DNA of 64,000 nucleotides from a bacterium (GTDB lineage Bacteria > Armatimonadota > Zipacnadia > Zipacnadales > UBA11051), in the NCBI GenBank assembly GCA_021372615.1, contig JAJFUB010000017.1, positions 117 through 64,116 on the forward strand, given 5' to 3'. A model generated the notes under the pieces. It saw only the letters and a program-made list of their open reading frames with translations, made no database searches and had not been told where the DNA came from. Below are positions 21,650 through 52,548 of the stretch, piece after piece (within the stretch, counting starts at the first letter, position 1; each line of letters opens with the position of its first letter). Position numbers and translations under genes: made by a program.

Positions 21650-21772
21650 ACTGCCTAGTGGGGGTGCCTGACGCGGCCCGGCCGGCGGATCATGCGCCGA
21701 GCGGGGCTGGGTTTGCGAGAGCTATTAGCGAAGCCGGCTGTCGCAGAGCCGGCTCCTGCACTGGGGCTTTCA

Positions 21773-22632: not shown

Positions 22633-22714
22633 GCACAGCGGAGGCAAACTCTTGCGGGGCTCTTGCCCGAAATGCGGTTAGCAGACCGAGAGAACGGTTA
22701 TACTAACCCAGAAG

Positions 22715-22742
22715 TGACGGCCTAGGAACCGTCACCTTTTTC
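22715..22742 (+). terminator. Intrinsic terminator after pilD: 7-bp stem gtgacgg/ccgtcac, 8-nt loop, then CTTTTT.
   Basis: Read directly. The only clear U-tract terminator in the window. Confidence 0.55.
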
Positions 22743-22948: not shown

Positions 22949-23740
22949 ATGAAGCAAATTCGCACCGCGCATCCGCGCGCCACACACGGGTTCACACTCG
23001 TCGAGTTGCTGGTTGTCATTGGGATCATCGTGATCCTGGCCGCGATTCTCTACCCCGTGTTCCAGTCGGTCCGCGAGAAGGCTCGTCAGGCTCAGTGCCG
23101 CTCCAACCTCCACCAGATCGCCGTGGCGTTGCGTGAGTACCGCGACAAGTGGGATCGCTATCCCTTCGCGCCGTACTACGACTCCACGGCGGGACGCTGG
23201 CTGGGCGGCATCAGCGCGCTGTACCCGGACTTCGTCAGCGACAAGGGCCTGCTGATCTGCCCGGACGATCACCAGATCAGCACGCGCAAGGGCACCGCCG
23301 CCGATATCTGCTACAGCAGCTACAACGGCATGGTGAGCACCAGCGACTGGACCTTCGAGACCTCGGACCAGACCAACCCCGACGGCCTGGGCGACGTGAC
23401 GGGCGCCGTGGAACGGACGTACAACTACTACGGGTACAGCCAGGAGGGGTACGACTGCTTCGATGACAGCACCCGGCCCTTCAAGAGCACGCTGGCCTCG
23501 TGGCTGCGCAACGACGGTCTGAGCTGGCGGCACTACCCGCGGCTGTACAACCGCAACGCCCCCGACAACACGATCATCACGCACTGCGTGCACCATCGCC
23601 GCTTCTACGGCAAGGAGCTGGCGAAGATGGACGCGGTGGTGACCCTGGGCGGCAAGAGTTCCATGGTGAACGTCAGCCAGATGAGCCGGGCCGGTACGGA
23701 CGCCGCACACCCGTCGAAGTGGGTGTCGCAGAAGAACTAG
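22949..23740 (+). CDS. Prepilin-type N-terminal cleavage/methylation protein (pseudopilin/minor pilin), H-X9-DG/DUF1559-like class, 263 aa.
   Basis: Leader ...THG|FTLVELLVVIGIIVILAAIL (G-1, E+5). GGGAGGAG RBS precedes the ATG. Confidence 0.8.
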   Translation: MKQIRTAHPRATHGFTLVELLVVIGIIVILAAILYPVFQSVREKARQAQCRSNLHQIAVALREYRDKWDRYPFAPYYDSTAGRWLGGISALYPDFVSDKGLLICPDDHQISTRKGTAADICYSSYNGMVSTSDWTFETSDQTNPDGLGDVTGAVERTYNYYGYSQEGYDCFDDSTRPFKSTLASWLRNDGLSWRHYPRLYNRNAPDNTIITHCVHHRRFYGKELAKMDAVVTLGGKSSMVNVSQMSRAGTDAAHPSKWVSQKN

Positions 23741-23791
23741 GAACGGGATTGGGCACTGGGCATTGGGGACGGCTACGGCAGCGGCACGGGA

Positions 23792-25726
23792 ATGCGGGCC
23801 ATGAGGATGCACAAGCGAACGACAATCGGGCTGACACGACGCGGCCTCACGCTCATTGAGCTGCTGGTCGCCATGGTCGTGCTGCTGGTCGGGATCTACA
23901 CGGTGGCCGCCGGCTTCCCGCGGATGCTCTATGCCATCCGCGGCGAGGGCGACCGCACCGCCATGGCGCGGCTGGCCGAGGAAGCCATGGCGCGCATGTC
24001 GGACAACCAGTACGGCTTGCCCGACGCCATCACCGGAGGCGGGAGTGTCGAGCCCCGCAGCTACCCCGAGGACCTGACGGCCCCGCACGAGGCGCGCAAC
24101 GCGCTGGAGGACATGCGCAAGGTACGCGGGGAGACCTTCCGCGTGCCGGCCCCGCCGATGGGTACCAGCGGCGGCTACGGGTACTACGTGCTGCAGCAGG
24201 GGCCGACGGAGTGCGAGGACTTCCGATCCGACGACCCGGATCCGACAGTGGATAGCTCCCCCTATGTCTACATGCTGGTGCCGCTGACCGAGCGCAACGA
24301 CGATCCGCGCGCTACCGGCGCCATCTCGCTGGAGGACAACTGGTTCTACGTGGACCGCGACGACGGGGAGATCGTGGTCCCGACCGTGGTGACGACGACC
24401 GAGGGCAACGAAGCGCGCCGGTGGGGGACAGGCGGCCTGCCGGGGGTCAGCAAGGTCGTGGTGGACTACGCCTGGACGGCGGAGGGCAACGGCGACACGG
24501 AGCCGGTGGTGCACCACGTCCAGAGCGAGGTGCCCAGCGACCGGGACACGACGACCCACGCGGGGCAACTGGTGGCGAAGGTGCACCCGGCGCACCTGGC
24601 GGGCGGGATCAACATCCTCCCTGCTCAGACGCGCGCCTGGGCCTGGGTCAAGTTCCAGCGCGAGGCCTACAACGTCGCTTATCCCAGTGGCCCCGGCCAC
24701 TATGTCCTGAACAATGCTTACGGTCTGACCCTGAGCTTCCATCCAGCCGATGTGGGGCTGACGCTCAAGGTGGACTACGAACTGGCGGCGTACAACACGA
24801 CCGAGGATGTGGACGCCCAGACAAGCGGCTCCACGGTGTACCCGCGACGCTTCCCGCTGATGATCGAGGATCACGTCATCGAGCGGCGCGTGGGTCGGAC
24901 CGACATCAACAGCGTGGACTATGCGGTCATCCGCCTGGCCGTCAAGGGCATCGACAGCGAGCCGCTGTTCGTTGATGACCTCAGCGGCGCGGACATTGAC
25001 GACGTGCACATGGTGGCCGTGGATCTGCAGACGGGCGCGATCCACGACGACAACGCCAGCGCCGACCCCTTCTCACTGGGGGCGCAGGACATCTTCGATC
25101 CGCCCTTCAACGGCTTCACTGACGGTCTGGTGGCCGTGCCGATCTCCGACAGCGGCGGCAGCAAGTCGTATGTCGGTCATACGTGGCGCTTCTTCTACTG
25201 CACGCTGAACCGCAACGCCATCCAGGCGCAGAAGGCGCCGCGGACGTATGTGGACAGCGAGACGGCCCGCACGTACCTGTCGGCCTACCTGCCCTCGGGT
25301 GAGACCGAAGCGACCAGTCTGGCCGAGGTGGACTACCGGACCTATCAGCTCAGCCACGTGGCCGCACCGAACGACAGCAACCGACGCCTGGGTGTGATTG
25401 AGTTCGGCCAGTGGCTGAGCGGCGAGACCTGGTCCACGGCAGAGTCGTCGTCGGGCGAAACCGTGGCGGTCAGCTACGCCTATGTCACCGCACCGCGCAC
25501 GCGGGAGTATGTGTGGGCGGAGCTGCACACGGTGCCGGTAGGCGGACGCAAGGTGACGCTGAACCACGCGACGCTCGCGGGCCATCCGATCGAGATACTG
25601 GCGGTCAACGGTGTGTCGGCCCGGGCCAAGGCCTGGTGGCTGAACCGCACGGGTCGGCAGTTGGAGTTGGATGTGGAGACGGTGTTCCTGGCCAATGCGC
25701 TGGGTTCCGTAGCGCGGGTGCAGTAG
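23792..25726 (+). CDS. Large prepilin-leader protein (644 aa), minor pilin/pseudopilin.
   Basis: Leader RRG|LTLIELLVAMVVLLVGIYTVAAG. Long beta-rich extracellular domain. Confidence 0.7.
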   Translation: MRAMRMHKRTTIGLTRRGLTLIELLVAMVVLLVGIYTVAAGFPRMLYAIRGEGDRTAMARLAEEAMARMSDNQYGLPDAITGGGSVEPRSYPEDLTAPHEARNALEDMRKVRGETFRVPAPPMGTSGGYGYYVLQQGPTECEDFRSDDPDPTVDSSPYVYMLVPLTERNDDPRATGAISLEDNWFYVDRDDGEIVVPTVVTTTEGNEARRWGTGGLPGVSKVVVDYAWTAEGNGDTEPVVHHVQSEVPSDRDTTTHAGQLVAKVHPAHLAGGINILPAQTRAWAWVKFQREAYNVAYPSGPGHYVLNNAYGLTLSFHPADVGLTLKVDYELAAYNTTEDVDAQTSGSTVYPRRFPLMIEDHVIERRVGRTDINSVDYAVIRLAVKGIDSEPLFVDDLSGADIDDVHMVAVDLQTGAIHDDNASADPFSLGAQDIFDPPFNGFTDGLVAVPISDSGGSKSYVGHTWRFFYCTLNRNAIQAQKAPRTYVDSETARTYLSAYLPSGETEATSLAEVDYRTYQLSHVAAPNDSNRRLGVIEFGQWLSGETWSTAESSSGETVAVSYAYVTAPRTREYVWAELHTVPVGGRKVTLNHATLAGHPIEILAVNGVSARAKAWWLNRTGRQLELDVETVFLANALGSVARVQ

Positions 25727-25733
25727 ATGAGTA

Positions 25734-25803
25734 GGGGTCTGTCCCCGTAGGGGGCTGACCCCGGCCCGGAATTCGGGGTCAGCCCCCTACGGGGACAGAC
25801 CCC
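25734..25803 (+). terminator. Perfect 30-bp-stem hairpin with a 10-nt loop, immediately after the 644-aa pilin gene. Very stable RNA stem or REP-like element.
   Basis: Left arm 25734-25763 ggggtctgtccccgtagggggctgaccccg. Right arm 25774-25803 is its exact reverse complement. Confidence 0.55.
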
Positions 25804-25824
25804 TGACACAAGAGGCGGTTCATC

Positions 25825-26631
25825 ATGCCGCGTCGGCATGACACAGGATTTACACTGATCGAGCTGCTCGTGGTCATCGGCATCTTTGTGGTGCTGACGG
25901 CGATCATCGTGCCGATCGGTCAGCGCCTGCGCGAAAGCAACCGCACCAGCACCTGCGAGGCTCACCTGGCGCACATCGGCCAGGCGCTGAAGGTGTACTT
26001 CACGGATGAGGGCGGGGTGCCGCCCGTGGGGGTGGAGGGGACGCTTTCCGGCGGCCCGACGGGCACCAGCGTGGATCTGGTGATGTGGCCGTCGCTGCAG
26101 TCGCTGTTCGTGCTGGGGTACATCAACGACCGGAACACGCTGCACTGCCCGCGGCACACCAAGACGGTCGCGGGGGCCGCGCTGACCGATGAGTCGCCCG
26201 AGTTCTACGCCAGCTACGCCTGCCAGGACCCGCTGGCCAAGCCGACGGGCAGCCCGCTGCGACAGTACAAGTACATGCCGTACCGGTGGGCGCTGCAGGG
26301 CGGTTACCCGGACGATTACCGGCGGCAGTTGGCGCGCGAGGGGTTTGACGACGATGACGGGACGGATGAGCTCGGCGACCACGTGCTGCAGGTGACGATC
26401 GGCTCGGCTAACTACCTGGTGGCCGGCAAGATCGGGTCGCGGCCGCCGGACGACACGATCGTGACGTGGTGCAACTACCACGCCGACACATACAAGCTCA
26501 ACCGCCACGGACAGTACATCGCGCTGTACTGGGATGGTTCAGTCAAGCTGCTAGACCAGGAGTTGTTCCGGGACGACGGGGTTGAGCCGGCCGAAGCCTG
26601 GCAGATCAAGCCTTCGGACATAGCCCACTAA
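25825..26631 (+). CDS. Prepilin-type N-terminal cleavage/methylation protein of the H-X9-DG/DUF1559 class, 268 aa.
   Basis: Leader DTG|FTLIELLVVIGIFVVL. C-terminal NYHADTYKLNRHGQYIALYWDGSVKLL matches the H-X9-DG signature. Confidence 0.8.
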   Translation: MPRRHDTGFTLIELLVVIGIFVVLTAIIVPIGQRLRESNRTSTCEAHLAHIGQALKVYFTDEGGVPPVGVEGTLSGGPTGTSVDLVMWPSLQSLFVLGYINDRNTLHCPRHTKTVAGAALTDESPEFYASYACQDPLAKPTGSPLRQYKYMPYRWALQGGYPDDYRRQLAREGFDDDDGTDELGDHVLQVTIGSANYLVAGKIGSRPPDDTIVTWCNYHADTYKLNRHGQYIALYWDGSVKLLDQELFRDDGVEPAEAWQIKPSDIAH

Positions 26632-26636
26632 GTAGA

Positions 26637-28379
26637 ATGAAGATGAGCAACGCAACTCTCTTCACAACAGTACGTAGAGGCCGGGAACGCCGGGCCGCCG
26701 CCGGAGCGCTGGCGGGGGGGCCGGGCGGCTTCACGCTGGTGGAAGTCCTGGTGGTGCTGGCCATCCTGGTCATCCTGTTCGGGTTGCTGTTCGCGCCCAT
26801 GATGGCCGGCATGGACATGGCACAGCAGGGCAAGGTGCAGTCGCGGCTGCAGGATGTGGCGCGCCAGGCGGCTGAGGAAGTACAGCGCGAGCTGATCAAC
26901 GCCGTCTACGTCTACCCGCCGCCGTCGTACCAGGTCGGCACCACCACCACCGTCACGGACTACTCGGAGGTCGCCTTCGTCCCGGCGGATACCGACTCTA
27001 GCGGCAACGTCACGACGCCGCGCCGCCCGCGCCTGTTCACCTACGGCGGGCAGAGCGAGTACCTGGTGGTGCGGTACTGGGTCAAGCCGCCGGATCTCAC
27101 CGGTGGCAAGGCGTATGACGAGACTAATCCCTTCGTGTTGATGCGCCAGGAGGGCGTCTACCGCTGGGACAGCGCCCTGGGACGCTACGTCTTCGGCAGC
27201 GTGAATACGACCAACGGGGCATTCCAGGCCGGGGTGCCCATCACGGAGAACTCAGTCACGCCCCGCGAGGACTATGACATCCCGGCCACGACCACGGTCT
27301 GCCTGGACGACCATACCATGCACGTGGGCTATGTGGCCGCATGCCCCAGCGACGACAGCACGAACCTGGTCTACCTGCACGATGATGTGAAGTTCCAGCC
27401 CGAGCGGATCATCGGTGAGGCGCTCGCGGCCCAGCAGAACAACACGGTCTTCGAGGCGCGGCACGGCAACTGGATGGGCCAGCCCAACAACGGCGTGGCG
27501 GTGTGGAAGACGACGCTGTCGCAGACGGAGTCGGAACTGCAGCCGCGCATCGTGCAGTACCGGTGGAACGGCAGCGCCTATAGCAACATCGCGCTGGACA
27601 CGTACACCTCGGTGCCGGAGGCTCAGGCGCTGCACTGGAACTCGGCGACAGGCACGGTGCAGCTCGGCGCCTGGCGCACGGTGCGGGTGGAGATACAGAA
27701 CCCGGACGCGACGCCGGCTTCCGGCGAGTACTACGCGCTGAAGATCGAGGGCGACACCTACGACGCGTCGAGCAACGGCACGCAGACTGCCCCCGTGGCG
27801 CCGGTCTACCCCAAGACGCCGACGGAGTGGGGCGAGCCGGCCGTGCCGATCGCGTACCACATCAACCCGGACTACAGCGATAGCACGGGGGCGGCGGCCA
27901 AGGTCGTGCCGCAGAGCGTGCGGGTGGTCTGGGGCTTCACCTTCAAGTCTACCACGACCCGGCAGGTGGCGCAGTTCACGCCGGCGCAGGAGGTCAGCCA
28001 GGCTGACCTGGGGCTCTACGAGTTCAGTGAGTTCATGCCGAGCAACCAGCGGTGGGCGGAGGCGCGCTTCAACCGCTACACCCCGCCCGGCCCGCAGCAG
28101 CTCTCGAATGCAGAGCGGGCTGATCTGGATGCAATGTGGGTGGACATCACGTACTACTACCGGCGCAACTTCGAGAGCTCGACCTCGGACTGCCGCGATG
28201 ACGTCGTCTATGCGGACTACTCGACCGGCGAGGTCGTCAACATCACGCTGATCCCGCAGCGCTTCATCGAGTTGCAGCCGTATCGGGACGGTGCCACGAA
28301 CCTGGTGGTGCCTCCGGACCTGCCGGTGGGTGGCGTGCCGGTGCGCACCCAGGCGATCCTGCTGAACGCGCGCCGCTAA
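26637..28379 (+). CDS. Large prepilin-leader protein (580 aa), minor pilin/pseudopilin.
   Basis: Leader GPGG|FTLVEVLVVLAILVILFGLLFAP. Confidence 0.7.
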   Translation: MKMSNATLFTTVRRGRERRAAAGALAGGPGGFTLVEVLVVLAILVILFGLLFAPMMAGMDMAQQGKVQSRLQDVARQAAEEVQRELINAVYVYPPPSYQVGTTTTVTDYSEVAFVPADTDSSGNVTTPRRPRLFTYGGQSEYLVVRYWVKPPDLTGGKAYDETNPFVLMRQEGVYRWDSALGRYVFGSVNTTNGAFQAGVPITENSVTPREDYDIPATTTVCLDDHTMHVGYVAACPSDDSTNLVYLHDDVKFQPERIIGEALAAQQNNTVFEARHGNWMGQPNNGVAVWKTTLSQTESELQPRIVQYRWNGSAYSNIALDTYTSVPEAQALHWNSATGTVQLGAWRTVRVEIQNPDATPASGEYYALKIEGDTYDASSNGTQTAPVAPVYPKTPTEWGEPAVPIAYHINPDYSDSTGAAAKVVPQSVRVVWGFTFKSTTTRQVAQFTPAQEVSQADLGLYEFSEFMPSNQRWAEARFNRYTPPGPQQLSNAERADLDAMWVDITYYYRRNFESSTSDCRDDVVYADYSTGEVVNITLIPQRFIELQPYRDGATNLVVPPDLPVGGVPVRTQAILLNARR

Positions 28380-28434
28380 GCGACCGGGACACGTCGTAGG
28401 AGCGGCTTGCCGCCGCGACCTGAGATGCAATGCT

Positions 28435-31400
28435 TTGGCACACCAGACGGCCCAGACCATGATGACCAGAATTGCCGGAGATCGAGGATTGCGGAGCCCC
28501 AGCGCCCACCGCCTTGCGGCGGGGAGCCGCTGGCGCGGCATGGGAGGCCGGGGGCGTGACGGCCAGGCGCTGCTGGTCGCCGTACTGCTCATGACCGTCA
28601 TTCTCCTGATCGGCATCCTCTTCGCCGCCCTGGTGTCGTACAACCAGGGGCAGTCGGCGCGCCACGTGGACGTGGTGGGGGCCGACCAGAACGCTGCCGC
28701 GGGCATCAACTACGCCAACGGGATGCTGCAGTACAGCCCGGAGGGGGCGGACTGGCGCCCGCACTTCGTGGCGTATGCCGGCACCGGCACTGAGGACCGC
28801 CAGGACCCGTCCACCTGGCCGCAGGACCCGTCGCTGTGGCCGTCGCCGCCGGCGCAGTACCAGGACGGGACCGTGGACTTCAACTTCTGGGGTCTGGACG
28901 GCACCGAGGGCACCGAGGACGACTACTACAGCGACTTCGACATGGTGCGCGGCTGGTTCCCGCTGCGAGCCGACAGCGTCAACAAGCCGGGCCGGTTCCT
29001 GCGCATGGGCTTCCATCGCTATCCGGACCCGAACCAGCTCGGCACCGACCGCGATAGCGTATTCGTCGGGCGAGGCTACGTCCTGCTGCAAGTCATCTAC
29101 GATCCGGACCCGCCGTACGAGCCGGATGATGCGCCGACGCCGGACAAGATGAGCAACTGCGTCAAGATCGTCAGCATCGGCCGGGCGGTGCAGCAGAGCA
29201 ACGTGTTCCGGCGGCTGGTGGCCTACAAGCCGTTGGGGCTGACGGACCACATGATGTGGGTGACGAACCAGTCGGGCGGGGCGCGACAGGCCACCGTCGC
29301 CGTGCGCCCCAATGTGGACATGAATGCCAGTGGCTCGCATGAGACCGGGGAGACGCTGTTCACGCATAGCTTCGGCCCGGTGCGGTCGGAGGCGCCGCTG
29401 TACTGGCTGGGGCACGAGATCAGCGCCGGCACGCCGTCCACGCTGTTCCGGCTGCAGACGAGCCCCGTTAGCCACGAGGGCTACCTGCGCGATGATACTT
29501 TCATGGTGCCGCGAGGCCTGTACGCTCTGGACAGTGACATCAACGCCGCGACTGGGGCCCCGGTGTCTGCCAACGGGGCCGCGGTGTCGGTAGACGGGGG
29601 CGCGAATACCGTACTGCCCACCGCGCTCGACCCCACCGCGACCAACGCGCCCAGCCGGGTGTATGTCGGCACCCAGAACGTGCCCGAGTTGGCGCCAGTG
29701 GACCTCAACGCCACCGACCCGATCAGCGGCAAGAGCCGCTATGCCGCGCTAACCCGCGATTCGGGGGCGGTGGTGCGGGCCACCTCAGCCGACGCCGACC
29801 ATGATGTGGCGGCGAATGACCCGGTCAACATCGGCCTGTATGGCCATGGCGCCGGGATGTACATAGACAATGTGGATGACATCCAGTACCACGGCGACTT
29901 GACCGACCTGATGAACGACTGGCTGCGCTCGCCCACGGGCCAGGGCTACGCCGGCTCGGACACGGGCTGGAACTCCCTGTTCTCGACCTACACGCCGCCA
30001 GGGGTGGAGGTCGAGTTCTTCCCGAATGAGGCCGCGGTGGAGCGCACGGCCACCGGCGGCATCGGGACGGGCGACGACCCGACGGCGCTGGCGGTCAACC
30101 AGCTCTGGTGGCCGCGCCACCAGGCGGGGGCGCCGGGGATCAAGATCACGCGCCATGACAAGCGCTGGCGGCGGGCCGATTACGACGGCACGTCCTGGCA
30201 TGTCGGCGGCGACTCGGGCCGCAACGTGATGGTCATTGACTACCCCGAGTACACACACCAGGTGATCTTCGCCGAGGGGAACGTACGGGTCAAGGGTGTG
30301 CTGCCGGCGCGCGACCGGACCGACACGACCGGGACTCTGGACCGCAGCTTCGACATGACCGTCGTCTCGAACGGGACGATCTACATTGACGGGCAGCTCA
30401 TGACCTACCAGGACGTCGTCGGGCGGCGCGAGAGCACCAGCGTCGCCAGCGGCGCCGTGCTGGACGAGGATGCCGCCAAGATCGCGCTGCTGGCTCGCGA
30501 CTACGTCTGCCTGAACCCGACGCAGATCGTGCCACAGCTTACCAGCGGGCTGGTGACGGCCGCGGCGGACGACGAGGCCAACCCCACGGTGACCGACCAG
30601 CACTGGGAGCTGTACCCCAATACCGGCGGGGCCGTCTACACGCACTGGCGCTTCGGCTGGCCGGATGTGGACGTCAATCAGGATGGCTACGGTGACGGCA
30701 CGCCGGGCACGGCGGTGGACACGGCGAACGTCGGTGTGAGCTTCGTGCCGATCCAAGCCGGGGCCGATCCGGGGCCGTCGGGCATGGCCATGACGGTCTA
30801 CAACGAGGACACCGCGACCACCGTTCCGTACACGTTCGGCGGGCCGCCGCCGTTCGATCCCTACACCTTCATGTTCGTGCCGCCCGGGGCGATGCTGGGG
30901 AGCGTCTCCTCGCCCGCCGCGTACGCCTCGAATGCGATCCTGCCGAACTGGCAGACACCGGGCTCGACGCCGGCTGAGACCTTCACGAACCCCAACGTGC
31001 CCTTCAACATCACGCCGCAGATCAGCACGAGCATTGGCTATGCGAACACGGTGTCGGTGTACCAGCGCGACCCGCAACTGGGGACGGGCTCGACGGCCTA
31101 TCTCATCAAGAAGTGGAAGGTCGAGGAGTACACCACCGATACGTTCAACCTGACCTCCGGCGGGACGGTCACCTACGCGATCCCGCGACCGTCGGTGCAC
31201 TGCCATGTGAGCGCGCTGATGCTGGCGCAGCGGGGCAGTTGGTTCGTCATTCCCGGCACGTACTTCGATCCGCAGGCGATGGCCGATCCGGCGTTCGACG
31301 CGAATGCCGGGATCAGCGGCGCCGACGCCGCCACGATCAGCGCTCTGGACAGCCTGTATGCGGCGCGGTTCCGGCGCTACAACTATGAGATCGTGGTACG

Positions 31401-31692
31401 GGGGACCATCACCGAGGACCACACCGCGCCGCTGGAGGCGCAGCAGACGTGGATGACGCGCTGGGCCTTCCCAATCTATACCGGCAGCGGTAGCAGCCTG
31501 TCTTTGGCCTGGGGCTCGATCCGCTATGAGTTCGATGAGCGACTGCGGCAGGCCCGCAACCAGAGCCCGGCGGCGCTCACCGGCACAGTGCGGCGTTCGG
31601 CCAGTGATCCGAACGATGTGCAAGGCTTGCTGCCGAAGCTGCCGTGCCTGCCGGCAAGCCCGACGTTGATGTACGCCGGAGGAACGCTGTAG
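28435..31692 (+). CDS. Giant pilus-associated protein (1085 aa from the first ATG) with a PilX-N-like hydrophobic anchor and a large extracellular domain. Candidate PilX/PilY1-like tip adhesin.
   Basis: ...RGRDG|QALLVAVLLMTVILLIGILFAALVSYNQGQS resembles the PilX N-terminal module. Start uncertain (alternative ATG at 28540). Confidence 0.6.
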   Translation: MAHQTAQTMMTRIAGDRGLRSPSAHRLAAGSRWRGMGGRGRDGQALLVAVLLMTVILLIGILFAALVSYNQGQSARHVDVVGADQNAAAGINYANGMLQYSPEGADWRPHFVAYAGTGTEDRQDPSTWPQDPSLWPSPPAQYQDGTVDFNFWGLDGTEGTEDDYYSDFDMVRGWFPLRADSVNKPGRFLRMGFHRYPDPNQLGTDRDSVFVGRGYVLLQVIYDPDPPYEPDDAPTPDKMSNCVKIVSIGRAVQQSNVFRRLVAYKPLGLTDHMMWVTNQSGGARQATVAVRPNVDMNASGSHETGETLFTHSFGPVRSEAPLYWLGHEISAGTPSTLFRLQTSPVSHEGYLRDDTFMVPRGLYALDSDINAATGAPVSANGAAVSVDGGANTVLPTALDPTATNAPSRVYVGTQNVPELAPVDLNATDPISGKSRYAALTRDSGAVVRATSADADHDVAANDPVNIGLYGHGAGMYIDNVDDIQYHGDLTDLMNDWLRSPTGQGYAGSDTGWNSLFSTYTPPGVEVEFFPNEAAVERTATGGIGTGDDPTALAVNQLWWPRHQAGAPGIKITRHDKRWRRADYDGTSWHVGGDSGRNVMVIDYPEYTHQVIFAEGNVRVKGVLPARDRTDTTGTLDRSFDMTVVSNGTIYIDGQLMTYQDVVGRRESTSVASGAVLDEDAAKIALLARDYVCLNPTQIVPQLTSGLVTAAADDEANPTVTDQHWELYPNTGGAVYTHWRFGWPDVDVNQDGYGDGTPGTAVDTANVGVSFVPIQAGADPGPSGMAMTVYNEDTATTVPYTFGGPPPFDPYTFMFVPPGAMLGSVSSPAAYASNAILPNWQTPGSTPAETFTNPNVPFNITPQISTSIGYANTVSVYQRDPQLGTGSTAYLIKKWKVEEYTTDTFNLTSGGTVTYAIPRPSVHCHVSALMLAQRGSWFVIPGTYFDPQAMADPAFDANAGISGADAATISALDSLYAARFRRYNYEIVVRGTITEDHTAPLEAQQTWMTRWAFPIYTGSGSSLSLAWGSIRYEFDERLRQARNQSPAALTGTVRRSASDPNDVQGLLPKLPCLPASPTLMYAGGTL

Positions 31693-31877
31693 CAACGGGG
31701 CGGGGGGTGGCCGGGGAGACGAGGGTCGCGGTCGGTGGCCGCTCCTACACCGGACTCCCTGGGAGAGGCAATCCCGTCGGCGACGGAGGTGTAGGAGCGG
31801 TCACCGTCCACGAGGGAGCAAGCGGCGGGGGAGGGTCGGGCTGTGGTGTGTGCTGTGCTGACCGGAGGTATGTCTTG

Positions 31878-37328: not shown

Positions 37329-37373
37329 AGATGTCTAGGGCCTGGTTCTCGTTCCCGCAGGAGTGACTGTCTT

Positions 37374-40300
37374 ATGCAGCGCTATCAAACCAGAGCGGTG
37401 TTCATCATAGGGGCGGCCCTGCTGGTCGCCACGGCCTTCGCGCAGAACTACGAGGTGCGGACCTTCGTGGCCGACCCGAGTGTGGCGACCACCGATGACG
37501 CCTCGACTTCGACGAAGACCTTCCAGTACCTGTACAACTCCATCCGGCAGCGCTATGTGTGCCCCTACTGCTCGTACTCGCAGGCGACGGCGGGGAACTG
37601 CCCGGACCCGTGGAAGGCGAGTGGGCATCCGAGCAATCTCGCGCTACGTGACCTGTCGGCCCTGCCCAAGAGCCGGTTCCTGTCGCTGGCGGCCCAGGAG
37701 ATGCCGGACCGGACCCACAGCGACCTGACGCTCCCCAACGCGGCCGGCACGCTGCTGTACCGGGCGCTGATCGGGCGGCCGTACAAGCCCAAGGACTCCG
37801 ACGACACGACGACCGGGTCGGTGCTGTACGCCGCGGCGGCTGGGCTCATCAACACCGACGCCGCGGTCGGGCCGGTCATCGCTGAGAACGACCCGGTGCG
37901 CTGGCTGGTCATCCCGCCGACGCCGCTGCGGCGCGATGTGAAGGCAAGCGACTACACACCGGGGGTGGACCCGGACTACGGCCTGCCGCAACGGCGGCCG
38001 GAGGCCCAGGCCGACCCGGGCACGGACAACGGCGGGGATGACGACTGGCGCGCGCAGTTGATCGAGCCCCAGTCGGGCGACCCCGGCTACTTCGACGCCG
38101 CGAGCCTGCTCAACTACCTGGAGATCGGGGTCAATCCCTACCGTGTGGACGAGGGTGACACGTGGTGGGTGCGCTATACCGAGGTATACAAGAAGGATGC
38201 GGCCGATCTAGGCAATGTGGCCAACGGCACGTTTGCACGGGCGCAAGTCTCCATCTACAGCGTGCTGTACGGCTGGCAGAGCGGGGCGGACCCGAGCACG
38301 CCGCTGACCATCGATCCGAACGGCCCCCAGAACAACGAGACAGCGATCGCCACACCCTTCTCCGTCATCGCAGACAGCGGCGCGGTCCAGTTGACCTTCT
38401 CCGAAGGCGGCGATGACGCTGACGGCGATGCCAGGGACGGCTGGGCGGGCGACACGGTATCCGTGCCGGCGGGCCAGCTGGAGTCCTCGCGCACCTGGGT
38501 CGTCCGCTTCATGGTGCGGTCCAACTGCCGGCTGATCCCGGGCTGGCAGGACGTGGACGACGATGCGGTAGACCCGACCTACAAGGACATCAACGGCACG
38601 TGGCACAACAACGCCACCTTCGATGCTGATCCAGTCGCCTATACTTTCGGCGGCCGCAAGGAAGCGTGGATGAAGGCGGCGTCGGCCAGCACCGTGCCGA
38701 CTGTGACAACCGAGACGGACGTCGAGCAGACCAACGATGAGCCGGAGGGCTATACCATCCCGGCAAACTGCACGGGGAACGGCATGGCGGCGGTGCAGTG
38801 GCGCGATCCCGACCCCGCCACCGAGGCGACCTGGACGCCCGACCCGACGGCCGGCGGCACCACGGCCAACGCCGTCTACCGGCGCACCGGCTATGAATGG
38901 CAGTACGACGCCGGGATCAACGGCGGCGCGGTGACGAACATCACCAACGATGAGATCGCCACCGGCGCCCCGGCCAACTACAGCGCGGGATACCCGTATG
39001 TGCACTTCGCCGGCGCGCGGTTCATGTCCACCCGTACCGAGACCCCCCCGACGAACACGCAGTGGGACAAGGACAGCGACGGCGACGGTGACGAGCAGGC
39101 CGAGACACAAGGCCTGGCCCTGGCCTACCCGAAGGTCATCATCGGTCTGTGCAACACCAGCGGGGTGGACCTGGTGTACGGCGCGTACGGCCCCGGGAGC
39201 ATCACCAGCCGCCGGACCTATGACGTGGTGAACCGGTGGAACGGTGCGGCCGCGACCAGCGTGTGCAACATCTGCGGCGCCGTATGGGCTCCCCGATGGA
39301 ACGGGACGGCCTGGGAGAGCACGGCGCCGACCGTATGTCCGTATCACAGTGCCGCGGCGACGGACATCACTGAGCTGACCGGGACCGGCGCGGGCAACAC
39401 GACCTACAACGGAACGTATACCCGGCAGACGGGGATGGTCAACGGCCACGACTACTACCGGAAGGGTGCCACCTCGTACTACATCTACCACGCGCCCGCG
39501 CCCCGGAAGCGCTGGCTGATGGCCACCTCGACGGCCGTCACCTGGAAGAATGCCGCCTACTGGAACAACATGCTGGCCGGCACCTGGAACCCCCAGAAGG
39601 AGCCCGGCAACCCGGTAGTAGCGGCGACGGTTGATACGTCCAGCGGCGTGCTGGAAACGGCGCCACAGGGCGGCGGCGCGTATGACGCTGCTCTCGATGT
39701 CTGGCGCGCGGCGACCGCCATCGGCGATGACGAACGCCGCGAGCCCGCCCAGACGGTCCAGCACGTCTTGCCCGCGAGCGCCCTCAGGAGCGGCGCACGC
39801 AGCGTCGCCTCCTGCCGCAACACCGACTCGTCGGCGGGTTCGGACCCGAACGACACCGACCCGGGCACAAACGAGGTCTGGGCGGAGATACCCCGGTCGC
39901 AGCCGCCGTCGGTCCCCGAGGCGGCGGGCCACACCAACAACTACTCCGCCGACCTGGGCTACCGCGGAGGAATGGTGACCTTCCGCAACGAGACCGCGCC
40001 GACCGCGGACGAGCACGCGTATCCCCCGACGGTCTCGCCGCTGACCAACGGCTGGGACACCTTCTACCGCAACCCGGACCTCGGGTGCTTCCAGCCGGCG
40101 ACGGGGCAGTGGCCGTACCTGTGCGACGCCGGGACCCCGGGGGACATCAGTGACGACCACATTGTGTGGAACACCACCAACTCCTGCTCGCTCCACACCG
40201 GGGCGACGGTGAACGAGGTGGAGGGCAGGCACTACTTCTGCCCGCGCTGCGGTACGGAGCGGCGGGATTCGGGGAGCTGCCCCTTCGATGGCACCCTCCT

Positions 40301-43300
40301 CGTGCAGATTGCCGTTGCCTCGGCCGTGCGCGAGGATCACCTGGTCGCCGAAGAGTTCGACCCCGTCGAGGTACAGGTGTCGGTGACGAGCAACGCGGCC
40401 GGCATCGCCCAGAGCGCCAGCGCCATCGAGATCGGTCGCGTGGCGCCCGGGGTGCGCGCGCAGCAGCCGGACACCACGGCGCGCGGCGTGGCGGCCAACA
40501 ACTACCAGCTCACCGACCATCGGGCCTTTCCCGGTGACGTATCGCCGCTGCCGGCTTTGGGGCACCGCCCCAGCGACGCGAAGGCGACGCTGCGCAACGA
40601 GAGCAATGTGGCGCTGGACATGCGGGTCGGCAGCGTACACGACTGGGTGGCCGGCAACGGCCTAAACAGCCGCGGCGACTACCTGCGCCTGGGGCAGGAC
40701 CCCTGGCTGGTCTCGTGGGGCCGCAAGGCCCAGGTCGGACCGCTCACACTCGACACACTGATGCCGCGCGTGAAGAACCCGGCGGGCAGTGGCCCCTATG
40801 AGGGAGACCTGCTGAACCGGACGTTCTGGAGCATCCTGGCGCCGGGGACCGAGGACCTCGGGGGAGAGGACACGTGGCTGCTGGCGGGCAACGGCACCCG
40901 CACGCCGGCGGCGGGTCTGATCACCGCCGGTGTCGCGGCCAAGCCGGTGCCGTTCGGCCAGCCGATCGGGACCTACACCGGGCAGCACGTGCAGTATCTG
41001 GATGACGGTGACGGCGTGTTCGAGTTCCAGCACTGGACCGGCAGCGGGTGGAGCGCCACCGATACTGCGGCGACGGAGTACAACCCTGCGGTGGACCTGC
41101 CGAGGGAACCGCTGGTGGGGCTGCTCAGTGGGCAGGTACGGGTCGTGGAGACGCGCGTGCCGCAGAGCGACTTCTACTCGGCGGACAACGACCCGGTCGT
41201 GCTGCCGAGCCCTACGCCGGGTGTCATGCAGGTCATCTGGTCGAGCAACCGCCTGTCGGCGGACTCGAGCCAGGCGGGGTATGACGCCGCAGCAGTCGCC
41301 GCCGGGGCAAACCCGACGGCTCTGCCCACCAGCCGGACGCCGCTGAACCTCGTGTATGTGACCACGACCGGCTATACCGATGCCGACGATCCGCTGTATC
41401 GGCGGTACGGGTGGCCTGTCGCGGGGAGCGGGGCCATATCGCCGGCACGGGCGCTGACCAGCGACCCCGACAACGCCGCTGGCAGAATCACCAACAGCTC
41501 GCCCTGGGCGATGTACGACCTGTCGGGCAACAAATGGTCGTTCTGGCACAGGAGCCAGCCCAATGCTGGCGGGGTCGAGTCGACGCTGCGATACCGAGGT
41601 CCTCTGGGCGCCGCGAACTGGACCTGGCCAACCGGCATTCCGCCCTTCATCTACGACACGGGCCTGGCCAAGCAGGGGATGCGGGGCTTCTGGACCAGCA
41701 ACGGGGCCTGGCTGTTCTGGCACGAGGGGACACCGGGGCGCGAACGGCTGATGTTCCGGTGGAACTTCGACGGCTCGACCACGGCGAATGAGAAGCCGGT
41801 GCCGGTCACGAACCAGATGGGAGCGGGCATCACCGACCTGGTCAACGCGCCAACGCTGCCTGACGCGACCACCCCGATGGTGATCCGCAAGACCGGCACG
41901 AGCCCGTTCACCTACACCCGCGATGCCTCGGTGTTCACCAACAGCAACGTGGTGCACCTGTTCTTCTCGGGCTTCGTGACGCACGAGGGGCAGGCGGATG
42001 TCTGCTGGACGAAGTTCAACGCCAACACCATGTCCAACGCGGGCAGCGGGGTGACGTGGGCGAACGACAACTACTCCAAGCTGCCCTTCCCGCGGGTGAC
42101 CGACGAGGAGATGGAGCCGGACGGTCTGCACCAGCTCTATGGCAGCCGGCACCTGGACTGGCTGGTGGGGCGGAACGCGGCCTCCGACATGCCGGTGATC
42201 CAGGCTTTCCTGCGGGGCGACGGCATCAGCCCGGCGTTCCAACTGCAGTTGGGCTACCACGACACGATCGGTGACGACAAGGCACGACCCTCGCAGACGT
42301 TCAACATCGTGTGGGATGACTCGCGCGCCAACTACTATGACCGGGCGCGGGGCATCTACTATGTGACGCCGATCCTGACCTCGGTCAACGGCTCGTCCCT
42401 GCCCGCGCGCTGCGGCTACAACCCGACCACGGGCTCGTACACCAGCGGCTGGTACCTGCGCGACCCGAGTTCGACGGTCACGGCCCCGCGGCCCATCAGC
42501 ATGGCGATCAACCCGGCGGCCGGGACGGTGCAGTTCAGCTCGCCGCTGTTCAATGAGGACGCGCCGACGGATCGGACGGCGGTGTTCTGGTCCAGCGACA
42601 CGTTGGGTGGCGGCGGATCTGATCCCGCGCTGGAGGATGTCGTGCTGCACGTGGCGTACACGCCGTACATCTACCGCGTGACGCGGAGCAGCGCGGCCGA
42701 CGACGAGCCGTCGGCCTTCTATGATCCTGCAACCGCCGGGCGGCTGACCGTGTTCTGGCGGCGGAGCTACCCGGTCAGTGAGGCGCCGCACTTCGGCCGG
42801 CCGTCCTACATGTACAAGTGCTACACGACCTCAGTCCAGGTCGGGCGGCCCCCGGTATCAGGGAACGCCACGATCACGGAGTGGACCACCGGCAATTCCG
42901 TTACGTTGCTGTCGAGCAACCCCAATGCCGGCATCTACACGCTGGACCCGGCGACGGGGCAGGCGTACCTGCGGGTGGCGTACAATGACAGCGGCGGGAC
43001 AGCTCGGGTCGAACGGCACCAAGTTATCGGCTGGAGCCAGGAGATGGTGGTGCCGCTGGACACGGTGATTGGTGACGGCTCGATGGTGGCGGTGCCGGAG
43101 TCGTTCAGCGTGCCGCCCACCGAGGGCGCCGCGGCGAGCGTCCCGGCCGTGCGGTACTGGCTGTTCTGGTCGAGCCCGCGCGGGGTGTATGACCTGCGGC
43201 TGGTGGAGGACAACGGCACACGGGTGGCAGGGGACCTGGCGGTGCACCCGTCTTCGGACATCTACTCGGCGGTCGTGGCGCCCGACTTCGGTGGCCTGGC

Positions 43301-43343
43301 TCCGGAGCGCACGGTGCCGACGATCTCGCCCGACCCGACCTAG
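37374..43343 (+). CDS. Giant secreted protein (1989 aa) with a signal peptide and three CxxC...C knuckle motifs. Candidate adhesin.
   Basis: AGGAG RBS and ATG at 37374. Signal peptide MQRYQTRAVFIIGAALLVATAFAQ. Motifs CPYCSYS...C, CNICGAVW...C, CPRCGTERRDSGSC. Confidence 0.7.
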   Translation: MQRYQTRAVFIIGAALLVATAFAQNYEVRTFVADPSVATTDDASTSTKTFQYLYNSIRQRYVCPYCSYSQATAGNCPDPWKASGHPSNLALRDLSALPKSRFLSLAAQEMPDRTHSDLTLPNAAGTLLYRALIGRPYKPKDSDDTTTGSVLYAAAAGLINTDAAVGPVIAENDPVRWLVIPPTPLRRDVKASDYTPGVDPDYGLPQRRPEAQADPGTDNGGDDDWRAQLIEPQSGDPGYFDAASLLNYLEIGVNPYRVDEGDTWWVRYTEVYKKDAADLGNVANGTFARAQVSIYSVLYGWQSGADPSTPLTIDPNGPQNNETAIATPFSVIADSGAVQLTFSEGGDDADGDARDGWAGDTVSVPAGQLESSRTWVVRFMVRSNCRLIPGWQDVDDDAVDPTYKDINGTWHNNATFDADPVAYTFGGRKEAWMKAASASTVPTVTTETDVEQTNDEPEGYTIPANCTGNGMAAVQWRDPDPATEATWTPDPTAGGTTANAVYRRTGYEWQYDAGINGGAVTNITNDEIATGAPANYSAGYPYVHFAGARFMSTRTETPPTNTQWDKDSDGDGDEQAETQGLALAYPKVIIGLCNTSGVDLVYGAYGPGSITSRRTYDVVNRWNGAAATSVCNICGAVWAPRWNGTAWESTAPTVCPYHSAAATDITELTGTGAGNTTYNGTYTRQTGMVNGHDYYRKGATSYYIYHAPAPRKRWLMATSTAVTWKNAAYWNNMLAGTWNPQKEPGNPVVAATVDTSSGVLETAPQGGGAYDAALDVWRAATAIGDDERREPAQTVQHVLPASALRSGARSVASCRNTDSSAGSDPNDTDPGTNEVWAEIPRSQPPSVPEAAGHTNNYSADLGYRGGMVTFRNETAPTADEHAYPPTVSPLTNGWDTFYRNPDLGCFQPATGQWPYLCDAGTPGDISDDHIVWNTTNSCSLHTGATVNEVEGRHYFCPRCGTERRDSGSCPFDGTLLVQIAVASAVREDHLVAEEFDPVEVQVSVTSNAAGIAQSASAIEIGRVAPGVRAQQPDTTARGVAANNYQLTDHRAFPGDVSPLPALGHRPSDAKATLRNESNVALDMRVGSVHDWVAGNGLNSRGDYLRLGQDPWLVSWGRKAQVGPLTLDTLMPRVKNPAGSGPYEGDLLNRTFWSILAPGTEDLGGEDTWLLAGNGTRTPAAGLITAGVAAKPVPFGQPIGTYTGQHVQYLDDGDGVFEFQHWTGSGWSATDTAATEYNPAVDLPREPLVGLLSGQVRVVETRVPQSDFYSADNDPVVLPSPTPGVMQVIWSSNRLSADSSQAGYDAAAVAAGANPTALPTSRTPLNLVYVTTTGYTDADDPLYRRYGWPVAGSGAISPARALTSDPDNAAGRITNSSPWAMYDLSGNKWSFWHRSQPNAGGVESTLRYRGPLGAANWTWPTGIPPFIYDTGLAKQGMRGFWTSNGAWLFWHEGTPGRERLMFRWNFDGSTTANEKPVPVTNQMGAGITDLVNAPTLPDATTPMVIRKTGTSPFTYTRDASVFTNSNVVHLFFSGFVTHEGQADVCWTKFNANTMSNAGSGVTWANDNYSKLPFPRVTDEEMEPDGLHQLYGSRHLDWLVGRNAASDMPVIQAFLRGDGISPAFQLQLGYHDTIGDDKARPSQTFNIVWDDSRANYYDRARGIYYVTPILTSVNGSSLPARCGYNPTTGSYTSGWYLRDPSSTVTAPRPISMAINPAAGTVQFSSPLFNEDAPTDRTAVFWSSDTLGGGGSDPALEDVVLHVAYTPYIYRVTRSSAADDEPSAFYDPATAGRLTVFWRRSYPVSEAPHFGRPSYMYKCYTTSVQVGRPPVSGNATITEWTTGNSVTLLSSNPNAGIYTLDPATGQAYLRVAYNDSGGTARVERHQVIGWSQEMVVPLDTVIGDGSMVAVPESFSVPPTEGAAASVPAVRYWLFWSSPRGVYDLRLVEDNGTRVAGDLAVHPSSDIYSAVVAPDFGGLAPERTVPTISPDPT

Positions 43344-43586: not shown

Positions 43587-43615
43587 TTGACAATAGCTCT
43601 TGCACGGGCTAAACT
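43587..43615 (+). promoter_or_regulatory. Consensus sigma70 promoter TTGACA-17 nt-TAAACT for the pilMNOPQ operon. AGGAGG RBS before pilM.
   Basis: ttgaca at 43587-43592, taaact at 43610-43615. RBS aggagg at 43659-43664. Confidence 0.5.
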
Positions 43616-52532: not shown

Positions 52533-52548
52533 CGGAGGGGCGTGACGT

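Follow-up and report, generated by a model that had tools for sequence, protein, structure and literature searches.

The pilus locus and its seven-gene block

The window, by which we mean the whole 64-kb stretch of DNA that was analysed, carries a pilus locus in which a + strand block of seven genes (22949-43343; four prepilins followed by three giant proteins) lies between pilB-pilT-pilC-pilD and the genes pilM to pilQ. The features of the locus are:

17156..19012, +, PilB-type extension ATPase with an N-terminal MshE-type c-di-GMP-binding domain (Pfam T2SSE 1.6e-130, and MshEN)
19090..20271, +, PilT retraction ATPase (TIGR01420 pilT_fam 513.7 bits, cut-off 319; Pfam T2SSE)
20372..21649, +, PilC platform protein (Pfam T2SSF 2.7e-67)
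21658..22632, +, PilD prepilin peptidase (Pfam A24_N_bact and Peptidase_A24)
22714..22735, +, terminator-like hairpin and T-run in the pilD-p263 gap (consensus scan only)
22949..23740, +, p263, prepilin of putative DUF1559/HX9DG type (cleavage G14/F15, E19; N_methyl 31.8 bits)
23792..25726, +, p644, oversized prepilin, modular minor pilin (G18/L19, E23; N_methyl 23.6 bits; TIGR02532)
25825..26631, +, p268, p263 paralogue (G8/F9, E13; N_methyl 29.1 bits)
26637..28379, +, p580, oversized prepilin, modular minor pilin (G31/F32, E36; TIGR02532 22.8, cut-off 16.3)
28435..31692, +, giant 1, putative GspK/ComZ-type capping pseudopilin-like protein (N-terminal helix without E+5, beta-solenoid, CBM-like beta-sandwich)
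31878..37328, +, giant 2, 1816 aa (Sec signal at residues 1-27, AxA/Q; putative DUF4159-like domain; PQQ-like and NHL propellers)
37374..43343, +, giant 3, 1989 aa (Sec signal at residues 1-23, AFA/Q; no recognisable domain)
43587..43615, +, sigma-70-like promoter match before pilM (TTGACA-17-TAAACT, 10/12 consensus positions; consensus match only)
43676..45025, +, PilM (Pfam PilM_2 7e-54; TIGR01175 219 bits, cut-off 133)
45074..45985, +, PilN-position protein (by position; conserved after PilM in loci L002, L005 and L053)
46047..46844, +, PilO-like protein (Pfam PilO E = 0.0034, below cut-off; synteny conserved)
46930..47847, +, PilP-position protein (by position; 38-63% identity in L002, L003, L005 and L053)
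47936..48661, +, small STN-domain protein (weak Pfam STN; conserved in L002 and L053)
48748..50472, +, PilQ secretin (Pfam Secretin 1.1e-41)

An earlier note on this DNA had proposed this gene order, and an open reading frame is present at each place it claimed. It had also described the block as co-directional and closely packed; all genes are on the + strand, and the gaps within the block are 51, 98, 5, 55-160, 185 and 45 bp. The prepilins are 263, 644, 268 and 580 aa in length and the giants about 1050-1085, 1816 and 1989 aa. The two larger giants are of the sizes first given, while the 1085 aa given for giant 1 depends on which start is used: TTG at 28435 yields 1085 aa, ATG at 28459 yields 1077 aa and ATG at 28540 yields 1050 aa. 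An exact lookup of the TTG-start sequence gave no match, and the start codon is therefore uncertain. The DNA is 68% GC, a composition at which long open reading frames are expected by chance, for example one of 1071 aa that runs antisense at 31524-34739.

Along the full length of the + strand ORFs GC3 is 0.88-0.91 and GC2 is near 0.5, and full-length protein homologues (23-92% identity) occur in dozens of independent assemblies. The block ORFs are genuine genes, because GC3 stays near 0.9 throughout and the homologues are full length. High GC does favour spurious frames such as the antisense one, but the reading of the giants as chance open frames, or as smaller ORFs fused by assembly or sequencing error, is refuted by this composition over the entire length, by end-to-end homologues in independent assemblies (41-92% identity), by 482 representative homologues of giant 1 and by gene sizes that recur across 79 genome loci.

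PilB, PilT, PilC, PilD, PilM and a secretin occur together, and their profile matches identify the locus as type IVa pilus machinery. PilT and PilM score above curated cut-offs; type IV models are the best matches of PilB, PilC and PilQ, at scores below the equivalog cut-offs. For PilB the NCBIfam model type_IV_pilB gave 599.9 bits against 569 for GspE, and for PilQ the model IV_pilus_PilQ gave 206 bits against 184 for GspD, all four below cut-offs. The c-di-GMP motif NF053729 of PilB scored 66.4 (cut-off 38), and the best NCBIfam match of PilC was the Thermus-type model NF052607. The PilN and PilP slots were assigned from position and conservation only: the PilN-position protein matched no Pfam or NCBIfam family, and the PilP-position protein gave a weak GspC_delta match (3.8e-5). 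The small STN-domain protein is 24% identical to PilQ residues 19-250, which makes it a weak paralogue of the secretin N-terminus.

The block is bracketed by the terminator-like site after pilD and the promoter-like site before pilM. The consensus scans gave no enrichment over shuffled sequence for either type of site. Of the promoter that had been proposed before pilM, the 10/12 consensus match is present and nothing beyond it.

Four prepilins and three giant proteins

A six-frame scan of the whole 64 kb found exactly four G-1/E+5 prepilin motifs, all within the block. TIGR02532 is above cut-off for 4/4 of these proteins and Pfam N_methyl for 3/4 (p580, at 19.8, falls slightly under), and the G/F/E motif columns are conserved among homologues, in agreement with the leaders read earlier on the proteins of 263, 644, 268 and 580 aa. 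Since the only four motifs are those of the block, the window holds no short canonical pilin, as the earlier note had stated.

The first gene past pilD, p263, is preceded by a strong RBS (GGGAGGAG) and occupies this place in nearly all loci. DUF1559 (PF07596) matched it at 38.5 bits (cut-off 23.3) over profile positions 1-40 of 268 only, and its N-terminus matches the GspG and Myxococcus PilA models near 1e-9. A conserved C-terminal motif in the homologue alignment, P-DNT..T.C..H...G, resembles H-X9-DG; the NCBIfam search did not match TIGR04294. The paralogue p268 is 27% identical to p263 over 247 aa and is missing from distant classes in the locus comparison. In those classes only three prepilins and giant 1 are found, so that p263 could be one of four core minor subunits, and it is a candidate GspG/H-like subunit. 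It may also be the major pilin; equally, the major pilin may be encoded elsewhere.

Both p644 and p580 are conserved in synteny, and p644 gave a weak PilV match in NCBIfam. In PDB profile searches the N-terminal pilin helix of each was matched and nothing else, and their extra modules matched no Pfam family and no solved-structure sequence.

Giant 1 had been credited with a PilX_N-like anchor, a claim that did not hold: the PilX_N HMM reached one of 25 relatives (E = 0.11), and the protein begins instead with a pilin-type helix. The AF2 model (pTM 0.83) has a 59-residue N-terminal helix at residues 8-66, and the conserved N-terminus GQxLxVAV (GQALLVAV in the window) lacks the glutamate at +5. 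The GspK model NF037980 is matched by 4/25 relatives, the best at 2.2e-6. The window protein itself is unmatched by this model and by all others in Pfam and NCBIfam; a Foldseek search of the PDB gave no significant match and did not recover ComZ, and PDB sequence and profile searches found nothing, ComZ included. Giant 1 is pilin-like, probably of GspK/ComZ type, and capping pseudopilin describes it better than PilY1-like protein.

Giant 2 carries an NHL repeat (PF01436) at residues 1343-1368 (window 35904-35981; 23 bits, cut-off 20), which is the single Pfam or NCBIfam match among the window giants. Its homologues show NHL in 11/13 and PQQ_2 in 4/13, and homologues of the N-terminal part show DUF4159 (PF13709) in 8/15 (best 2.1e-7) and PQQ_2 in 2/15; in the window protein DUF4159 was not reached at E <= 1. 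There are 14 full-length homologues, and a profile search with the N-domain returned at least two matches (8,000-candidate prefilter). The PDB, searched by sequence and by profile, held no match to giant 2. The PQQ-like propeller carries a DLDxDGxxDDG loop at residues 427-437 (window 33156-33188), a DxDxDG-type loop which we take to resemble the PilY1 calcium site. The middle region between the PQQ-like and NHL propellers has no assigned fold. Residues 640-1816 were modelled poorly by AF2 (pLDDT 53, pTM 0.38), so the Foldseek result for this C-terminal model, which comprised weak NHL and DDB1-type propeller matches and no PilY1 (best 50), weighs little.

Giant 3 has 14 homologues among 5.8 billion proteins, with no significant Pfam match in 15 members and no PDB match. 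Its invariant alignment columns include three conserved Cys knuckles at C63/C66/C76, C631/C634/C655/H658 and H953/C956/C959/C969. The Sec signals proposed for giants 2 and 3 were read by eye from the sequence, and their AxA/Q motif is conserved in homologues. Sequence comparison rejected giants 2 and 3 as paralogues. We found no internal repeats in the giants, which are therefore not repeat-type adhesins.

Conservation across Armatimonadota

Across 79 genome loci this layout is the standard pilus cluster of several Armatimonadota classes. The comparison that had been suggested as a check on the block found it beside pilBTCD, in conserved synteny, in some 50 genomes of several classes. Giant 1 is present in every locus, and giant 2 and a third giant follow in most. 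Giant 2 lies directly after giant 1 in at least 54 of the 66 informative loci, and a third giant follows giant 2 in the 33 loci scorable by a strict automated test; in six loci missed by this test the third giant is visible in the BLAST map. The gaps between giant 2 and the third giant range from overlaps to about 270 bp, approximately two thirds being below 100 bp. In distant classes a non-homologous giant stands in the place of giant 3: comparison of the giant 3 profile with the third giants from Chthonomonadia, Fimbriimonadia and Armatimonadaceae gave no match (hhalign probability 8%).

Seven loci run from giant 1 directly to pilM with giants 2 and 3 absent, and these two proteins are therefore dispensable for the pilus machine. 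A loop in giant 1 measures 26-35 residues in 5/6 loci without giant 2 and 45-132 residues otherwise. In one locus (L006) the block remains beside the pilins while pilM does not adjoin, and in two others (L041 and L048) the slot after giant 1 is held by other large ORFs. Literature searches returned no description of such a module in Armatimonadota.

A putative tip module and its alternatives

The block order is collinear with both fimU-pilV-pilW-pilX-pilY1, giant 2 taking the place of pilY1, and G-H-I-J-K. As in the FimU-PilV-PilW-PilX-PilY1 complex of Pseudomonas and Myxococcus (PMC7541494), a minor-pilin operon adjoining core pilus genes is followed by a large Sec-exported non-pilin, the last pilin-like gene lacks canonical features and is the expected tip cap, and a propeller-rich protein (here giant 2) fills the slot after the cap. 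Giant 2 has the position expected of PilY1, directly after the gene in the PilX-like slot and with a Sec-type signal by eye. PilY1 proteins are about 1000-1500 aa in length. Here there are two giants (1816 and 1989 aa) rather than one protein, the block's own pilins reach 580-644 aa and the cap about 1050 aa, and the most conserved part of giant 2 is N-terminal (DUF4159-like), as opposed to the C-terminal propeller of PilY1. The PilY1/PilC domain (PF05567/IPR008707) is absent from giants 1-3 at Pfam E <= 0.1 and from 25 giant 1, 13 giant 2 and 15 giant 3 relatives at E <= 1, and no giant or relative matched the PilY1/PilC models of NCBIfam. Of the minor-pilin/PilY1 tip module first proposed, the pilus-linked minor pilins and large accessory proteins stand and the PilY1 family match does not. 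Likewise the large accessory proteins that had been called three large putative adhesins are real; an adhesin role is our inference, and giant 1 is rather a capping pseudopilin.

Giant 1 appears to share with ComZ of the Thermus thermophilus pilA1-pilA2-pilA3-comZ locus (PMC6561018; PDB 6qvi) a hydrophobic N-terminal helix, a probable GspK-like relationship, a predicted large beta-solenoid of ice-binding-protein type and a gene downstream of minor pilins, and both proteins are missed by standard pilin motif searches; the Thermus-type PilC match in the window is a further likeness. Giant 1 has double the size of ComZ, whose crystal chain in 6qvi is 518 aa, and adds a CBM-like beta-sandwich, and it shows neither sequence similarity to ComZ nor a Foldseek match that recovers it. 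We know of no Thermus counterpart of giants 2 and 3.

The prepilins p644 and p580, with a canonical N-terminus and at least 500 extra residues, follow the module-grafted-on-a-pilin design of modular type IV pilins (S. sanguinis PilB and PilC, CofB; PMC8179133), including a predicted tip location. Unlike those, their modules match no Pfam family or solved-structure sequence, and several pilins of this kind share one locus. At 860 aa, a modular pilin in that survey (PMC8179133) is the largest it cites, and the components here do exceed the catalogued modular pilins, as had been claimed for described PilY1 systems. Tapirins of Caldicellulosiruptor (10.1101/359786) belong to a monoderm system, are much smaller and not pilin-like, and showed no sequence relationship. 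The N-termini of p263, p268 and p580 match proteins C and D of the Verru_Chthon cassette (TIGR02596-02600) and cyanobacterial HpsB and HpsC below threshold (13-21 bits, cut-offs 70-256), through the shared N-terminal helix only, and no giant matched cassette protein A or HpsA in NCBIfam. These cassettes combine several prepilin-type proteins with one very large protein that has no assigned function.

We favour, at a probability of roughly 0.55, a reading of the block as the lineage-typical priming and tip module of the Armatimonadota type IVa pilus. It is best read as a module of oversized minor pilins and tip adhesins, PilY1- or ComZ-like in its working but outside the PilY1 family, and probably as a pilus tip or adhesion module of a new kind. 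PilD would process p263, p644, p268 and p580, and p644, p580 and, where present, p268 would assemble in the inner membrane with giant 1 as a GspK/PilX/ComZ-like cap. PilB-driven polymerisation of the major pilin, either p263 or a protein encoded elsewhere, would begin at this complex. Sec would export giants 2 and 3 across the inner membrane into the periplasm, where they would dock on the giant 1/minor-pilin complex, and they would pass PilQ riding on the pilus tip. There giant 1, through its beta-solenoid and CBM-like modules, and giant 2, through its propellers, would bind a substrate, most likely polysaccharide or surface material and possibly DNA by analogy with ComZ, and PilT retraction would then draw in the cell or ligand. 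The role of PilY1 with minor pilins, or of ComZ with PilA2, would thus fall to proteins that are far larger and unrelated.

Four class III signal peptides, the giant 1 helix without E+5, the conserved synteny and the co-variation of the giant 1 loop argue for the tip module; the weak ComZ link, without a Foldseek or PDB profile match, argues against it. A tip with all components would total about 0.7 MDa, and ComZ, at about 60 Å, is already close to secretin dimensions (PMC6561018). To get through the secretin, the components would have to be arranged in elongated form.

In a T2SS-like alternative, which we regard as unlikely, the five pilin-like proteins form a short pseudopilus in which giant 1 takes the GspK role. 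Giants 2 and 3 would then be cargo, pushed from the periplasm via the secretin to the surface or the medium and not borne on a long fibre. The T2SS tip GspH-I-J-K has the same arrangement of a G-like subunit, minor subunits and a large K-like cap without E+5; GspK itself measures about 330 aa and has an alpha-helical insert. The genes are ordered like gspG-H-I-J-K, NF037980 is matched by the 4/25 giant 1 relatives, PilB and PilQ score nearly equally to GspE and GspD, and the PilP-slot protein resembles GspC weakly. The Sec signals of giants 2 and 3 are as on T2SS substrates, and the slot after giant 1 varies as expected of cargo, with third giants non-homologous between classes and other ORFs in L041 and L048. 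Denise et al. moved some generic Armatimonadetes type IV filament systems to T2SS (PMC6668835). Against this, PilT above cut-off and PilM in place of GspL/M are T4aP hallmarks, and the GspK model leaves the window giant 1 unmatched. T2SS cargo genes are usually scattered, not fixed inside a pseudopilin operon phylum-wide, and a giant 1 loop that co-varies with giant 2 fits a stable partner better than transient cargo.

Giants 2 and 3 might instead be periplasmic or outer-envelope proteins, such as propeller scaffolds or enzymes, that merely share the operon. They lack pilin features and a PilY1 domain, their DUF4159, PQQ-like and NHL propeller types are found across many unrelated exported proteins, and they are absent in seven loci. 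This is rather improbable: over 50 genomes of several classes keep them directly after giant 1, the giants stay with the pilins where pilMNOPQ lies elsewhere, their gain and loss is coupled to the giant 1 loop, and the spacing between giant 2 and the third giant is short (about two thirds below 100 bp).

We give still less weight to a competence pilus, in which giant 1 is an enlarged functional ComZ orthologue, DNA uptake is the task of the block and giants 2 and 3 play an accessory part. The best PilC model is of Thermus type, and ComZ, a product of a minor-pilin operon, is a DNA-binding tip protein (PMC6561018), but giant 1 has no sequence similarity to ComZ, comEA, comEC, dprA and other competence genes were not found in the window, and giants 2 and 3 are left unexplained.

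A bolder form of the tip module, which we hold to be doubtful, is that giants 1-3 constitute a PilY1-unrelated pilus-borne machine of about 0.5-0.7 MDa, tip-mounted or pilus-delivered, that Armatimonadota would use to capture or process polysaccharide or other substrates from the environment. Enzymatic activity is conceivable for such a complex, as is, in view of the Cys knuckles, a dependence on metal. If true, type IV pilus tips would extend from simple adhesins to large multi-domain devices.

How type IV pili diversify function at their tips is an open question, and current models (PilY1, ComZ and a few modular pilins) derive from Proteobacteria, Thermus and Firmicutes. On the tip-module reading a whole phylum would have fixed a different solution, with about 6,600 residues of pilin-linked protein unnamed in current databases, and it becomes a physical problem how so large a tip gets through the secretin, if it does at all. 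The conserved gene set is defined well enough for testing, and cultured relatives such as Armatimonas exist. Hundreds of giant proteins annotated as hypothetical in Armatimonadota thereby gain a context-based role.

The pilus cluster and its prepilins

The window has a GC content of ~68%, and almost all genes from position 2558 to its end lie on the + strand. The genes of the pilus cluster are listed here.

Genes of the pilus cluster (window position, strand, product, basis of the call)
17156-19012, +, PilB (T2SSE plus MshEN), Pfam
19090-20271, +, PilT, Pfam
20372-21649, +, PilC, Pfam
21658-22632, +, PilD, Pfam
22949-23740, +, p263 (263 aa), ORF
23792-25726, +, p644 (644 aa), ORF
25825-26631, +, p268 (268 aa), ORF
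26637-28379, +, p580 (580 aa), ORF
28435-31692, +, giant 1 (1085 aa from TTG; 1077 or 1050 aa from the ATGs at 28459 and 28540), ORF
31878-37328, +, giant 2 (1816 aa), ORF
37374-43343, +, giant 3 (1989 aa), ORF
43676-45025, +, PilM, Pfam
46047-46844, +, PilO (weak match), Pfam
48748-50472, +, secretin, Pfam

The seven + strand ORFs that the earlier note had placed between pilBTCD and pilM are borne out by the ORF calls and by Pfam on the flanks. Its four prepilin-leader proteins were also recovered: a six-frame motif scan of the 64 kb picked up four G-1/E+5 prepilin leaders and no more, on the first four ORFs of the block, and these are confirmed as prepilins by the N_methyl and TIGR02532 models. 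The same scan found no short canonical pilin within the 64-kb window, as the note had said; p263, or else a protein encoded elsewhere, may be the major pilin. p268, absent from the distant classes, is 27% identical to p263 and a paralogue of it, and by sequence both appear to belong to a DUF1559/HX9DG-like prepilin group. p644 and p580 have canonical pilin N-termini, and their bodies of more than 500 residues gave no match to any Pfam family or solved-structure sequence.

PilT and PilM exceed the curated NCBIfam cut-offs. For PilB, PilC and PilQ the highest scores are to type IV pilus models, with T2SS models close behind, and on these scores we assign the machine to the T4aP type. Denise et al. 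placed some Armatimonadetes systems in the T2SS (PMC6668835), which calls for caution in this assignment. An MshE-type c-di-GMP-binding motif at the N-terminus of PilB (NF053729, 66 bits against a cut-off of 38) suggests that pilus extension may be under c-di-GMP control. Promoters and terminators were called from consensus matches alone.

The pilus cluster is flanked on its upstream side by aroE and on its downstream side by aroB, after which come genes for a PASTA-domain protein and an ECF sigma factor (16111-17022, 50514-51698, 51714-53124); locus L002 has these downstream genes as well. Just upstream of the secretin lies a small STN-domain protein (47936-48661), kept in L002 and L053, whose 24% identity to the secretin N-terminus marks it as a weak paralogue. 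Farther downstream lies a 758-aa VIT plus vWA domain protein (54516-56792). Near the start of the window, a 938-aa DUF4062 plus NACHT (STAND NTPase) protein (2558-5374) is followed by a HEAT-repeat protein that ends in a zinc ribbon (5332-6477), and the two may form a signalling or defence pair.

Coding evidence and conservation of the block

High GC content yields long spurious ORFs, and several antisense ORFs of 600-1071 aa lie opposite the giants (for example 1071 aa at 31524-34739 on the - strand). The + frames of the block have a GC3 of 0.88-0.91 and a GC2 near 0.5 over their full lengths, and by this test the antisense ORFs are classed as high-GC artefacts. Full-length homologues of the block proteins occur in independent assemblies. 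The searches gave 482 representative homologues of giant 1 at E <= 1e-3, mostly 900-1100 aa long, 14 full-length homologues of giant 2 (41-100% identity), and, among 5.8 billion proteins, 14 relatives of giant 3 (29-92% identity), 12 of which cover at least 93% of its length. Together, the coding GC3/GC2 and these independent homologues exclude an artefact and remove the possibility, raised in the earlier note, that sequencing errors had fused several smaller ORFs. No internal repeats were found in the giants, which are therefore not repeat-type adhesins.

A genome scan with the giant 1 alignment gave 79 loci, nearly all in Armatimonadota (Armatimonadia, Zipacnadia, Chthonomonadia, Fimbriimonadia, Armatimonadaceae and Hebobacterum), and a Logan contig from run SRR15035648 matches the window. 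Among cultured carriers, Armatimonas rosea encodes the giant 1 homologue WP_184191773.1. Homologues of giants 1 and 2 also occur in bins labelled as other phyla, a Sedimentisphaerales MAG (L054) and a Bacillota MAG (L071), probably through mis-binning; lateral transfer is possible.

As mapped by BLAST and HMM with the window proteins, the standard gene order is pilB - pilT - pilC - pilD - p263 - p644 - (p268) - p580 - giant 1 - giant 2 - third giant, the last being a large ORF after giant 2. Giant 1 is full-length in every locus whose contig spans the whole gene, and giant 2 follows it in at least 54 of 66 informative loci. A strict automated test detected, behind giant 2, a third large ORF (700 aa or more) in 33 of 39 loci; in the six loci missed, the BLAST map has giant 3 or a large ORF in this position. 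Giant 1 leads straight to pilM in seven loci (L047, L053, L059, L069, L077, L080, L083), and other large ORFs occupy the slot after it in L041 and L048. In L006 sulfate-assimilation genes, not pilM, come after the block, and thus the giants stay with the pilins and not with pilMNOPQ.

Phylum-wide conservation of giant 2 is limited to the N-terminal ~520 residues and residues ~1300-1470, and giant 3 is restricted to closer clades. The third giants of Chthonomonadia, Fimbriimonadia and Armatimonadaceae (L052-L085) are ~1300-1760 aa long with signal-peptide-like N-termini. Homology between giant 3 and the third giant of these distant classes was not detectable (hhalign probability 8%), and by sequence the latter is a different family: the slot is conserved, its occupant is not.

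Architecture of the giants

The AF2 model of giant 1 is usable (pLDDT 75, pTM 0.83) and opens with a 59-residue helix, as long as a pilin alpha-1, before continuing into beta-rich domains. The conserved N-terminus, GQxLxVAV, lacks the +5 glutamate, and the PilX_N-like anchor proposed earlier found no support. ComZ, a Thermus tip pilin, is described as having a pilin fold like that of GspK, into which a beta-solenoid of the ice-binding type is inserted; it is missed by pilin predictors and was proposed to cap the fibre (PMC6561018). The NCBIfam model for GspK, the T2SS capping pseudopilin, is matched by 4 of 25 giant 1 relatives (best 2.2e-6), consistent with the GspK-like fold of ComZ. Because neither Foldseek nor PDB profile searches recovered ComZ from giant 1, we rate the link between the two as weak to moderate, with an apparent likeness at the level of fold only.

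A loop of giant 1 (HMM positions 70-160) has low pLDDT in the monomer model. It is 45-132 residues long in every locus bearing giant 2, as compared to 26-35 in five of the six without it, a raw comparison that ignores kinship. The loop corresponds to residues ~79-178 (window ~28771-29070; loci named with it are L058, L069, L077, L080 and L083) and is a candidate docking region.

Read by eye, giants 2 and 3 carry signal peptides ending in AxA|Q and AFA|Q, respectively. The N-terminal domain of giant 2 matches DUF4159 in 8 of 15 diverse homologues and is followed by a PQQ-like propeller whose DLDxDGxxDDG loop is conserved; farther along, near residue 1343, there is an NHL propeller. For residues 640-1816 AF2 gave a poor model (pLDDT 53), and Foldseek with this model returned only weak NHL-type matches, PilY1 not among them. 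Giant 3 gave no significant family or structure match. Despite its Sec signal it has three conserved CxxC...C(H) knuckles, at residues 63-76, 631-658 and 953-969 (window 37560-37601, 39264-39347, 40230-40280), for which zinc-ribbon matches are weak only and either metal binding or disulfide formation is possible; one homologue was named 'rubredoxin' by JGI. Giants 2 and 3 are predicted to have similar mature N-termini, QTTFEYNTQPRTF (31959-32000) and QNYEVRTF (37443-37466), respectively, each of which is nearly invariant within its own family. An hhalign comparison of the two giants was not significant; the similar N-termini could be a shared recognition strand.

A proposed tip complex and its alternatives

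We propose that the processed pilins and giant 1 would together form a priming and tip complex, capped by giant 1. Giants 2 and 3, exported by Sec, would dock on this complex and be displayed on the pilus tip, where they would serve to bind ligands, with force supplied by PilT retraction. The conserved adjacency of giants 1 and 2, and a loop length that largely tracks the presence of giant 2, support a physical link between them. The CBM-like and solenoid folds make carbohydrate the likeliest ligand. Size poses the main difficulty, since the full tip would reach ~0.7 MDa and passage through the secretin would need an elongated form.

Alternatively, the machine may be T2SS-like with giants 2 and 3 as its cargo, a reading that agrees with their Sec signals, with the variability of the third slot and with GspE and GspD scores nearly equal to those of the pilus models; the presence of PilT and PilM and the fixed position of the giants within the operon argue against it. 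By analogy, giant 1 could possibly be ComZ-like with a role in DNA uptake. Giants 2 and 3 might instead act in the envelope with no relation to the pilus, but the synteny agrees poorly with this.

The gene order of the block parallels both gspG-H-I-J-K and fimU-pilV-pilW-pilX-pilY1. By sequence the giants do not match PilY1, the tip adhesin. Among the papers searched, none described the Armatimonadota module. Read as a tip complex, the module would by analogy work like the PilY1/minor-pilin and ComZ/PilA2 tip systems and the modular pilins (PMC7541494, PMC6561018, PMC8179133). The largest modular pilin that one survey cites is far smaller, at 860 aa (PMC8179133), and the module should be of interest to pilus biologists.
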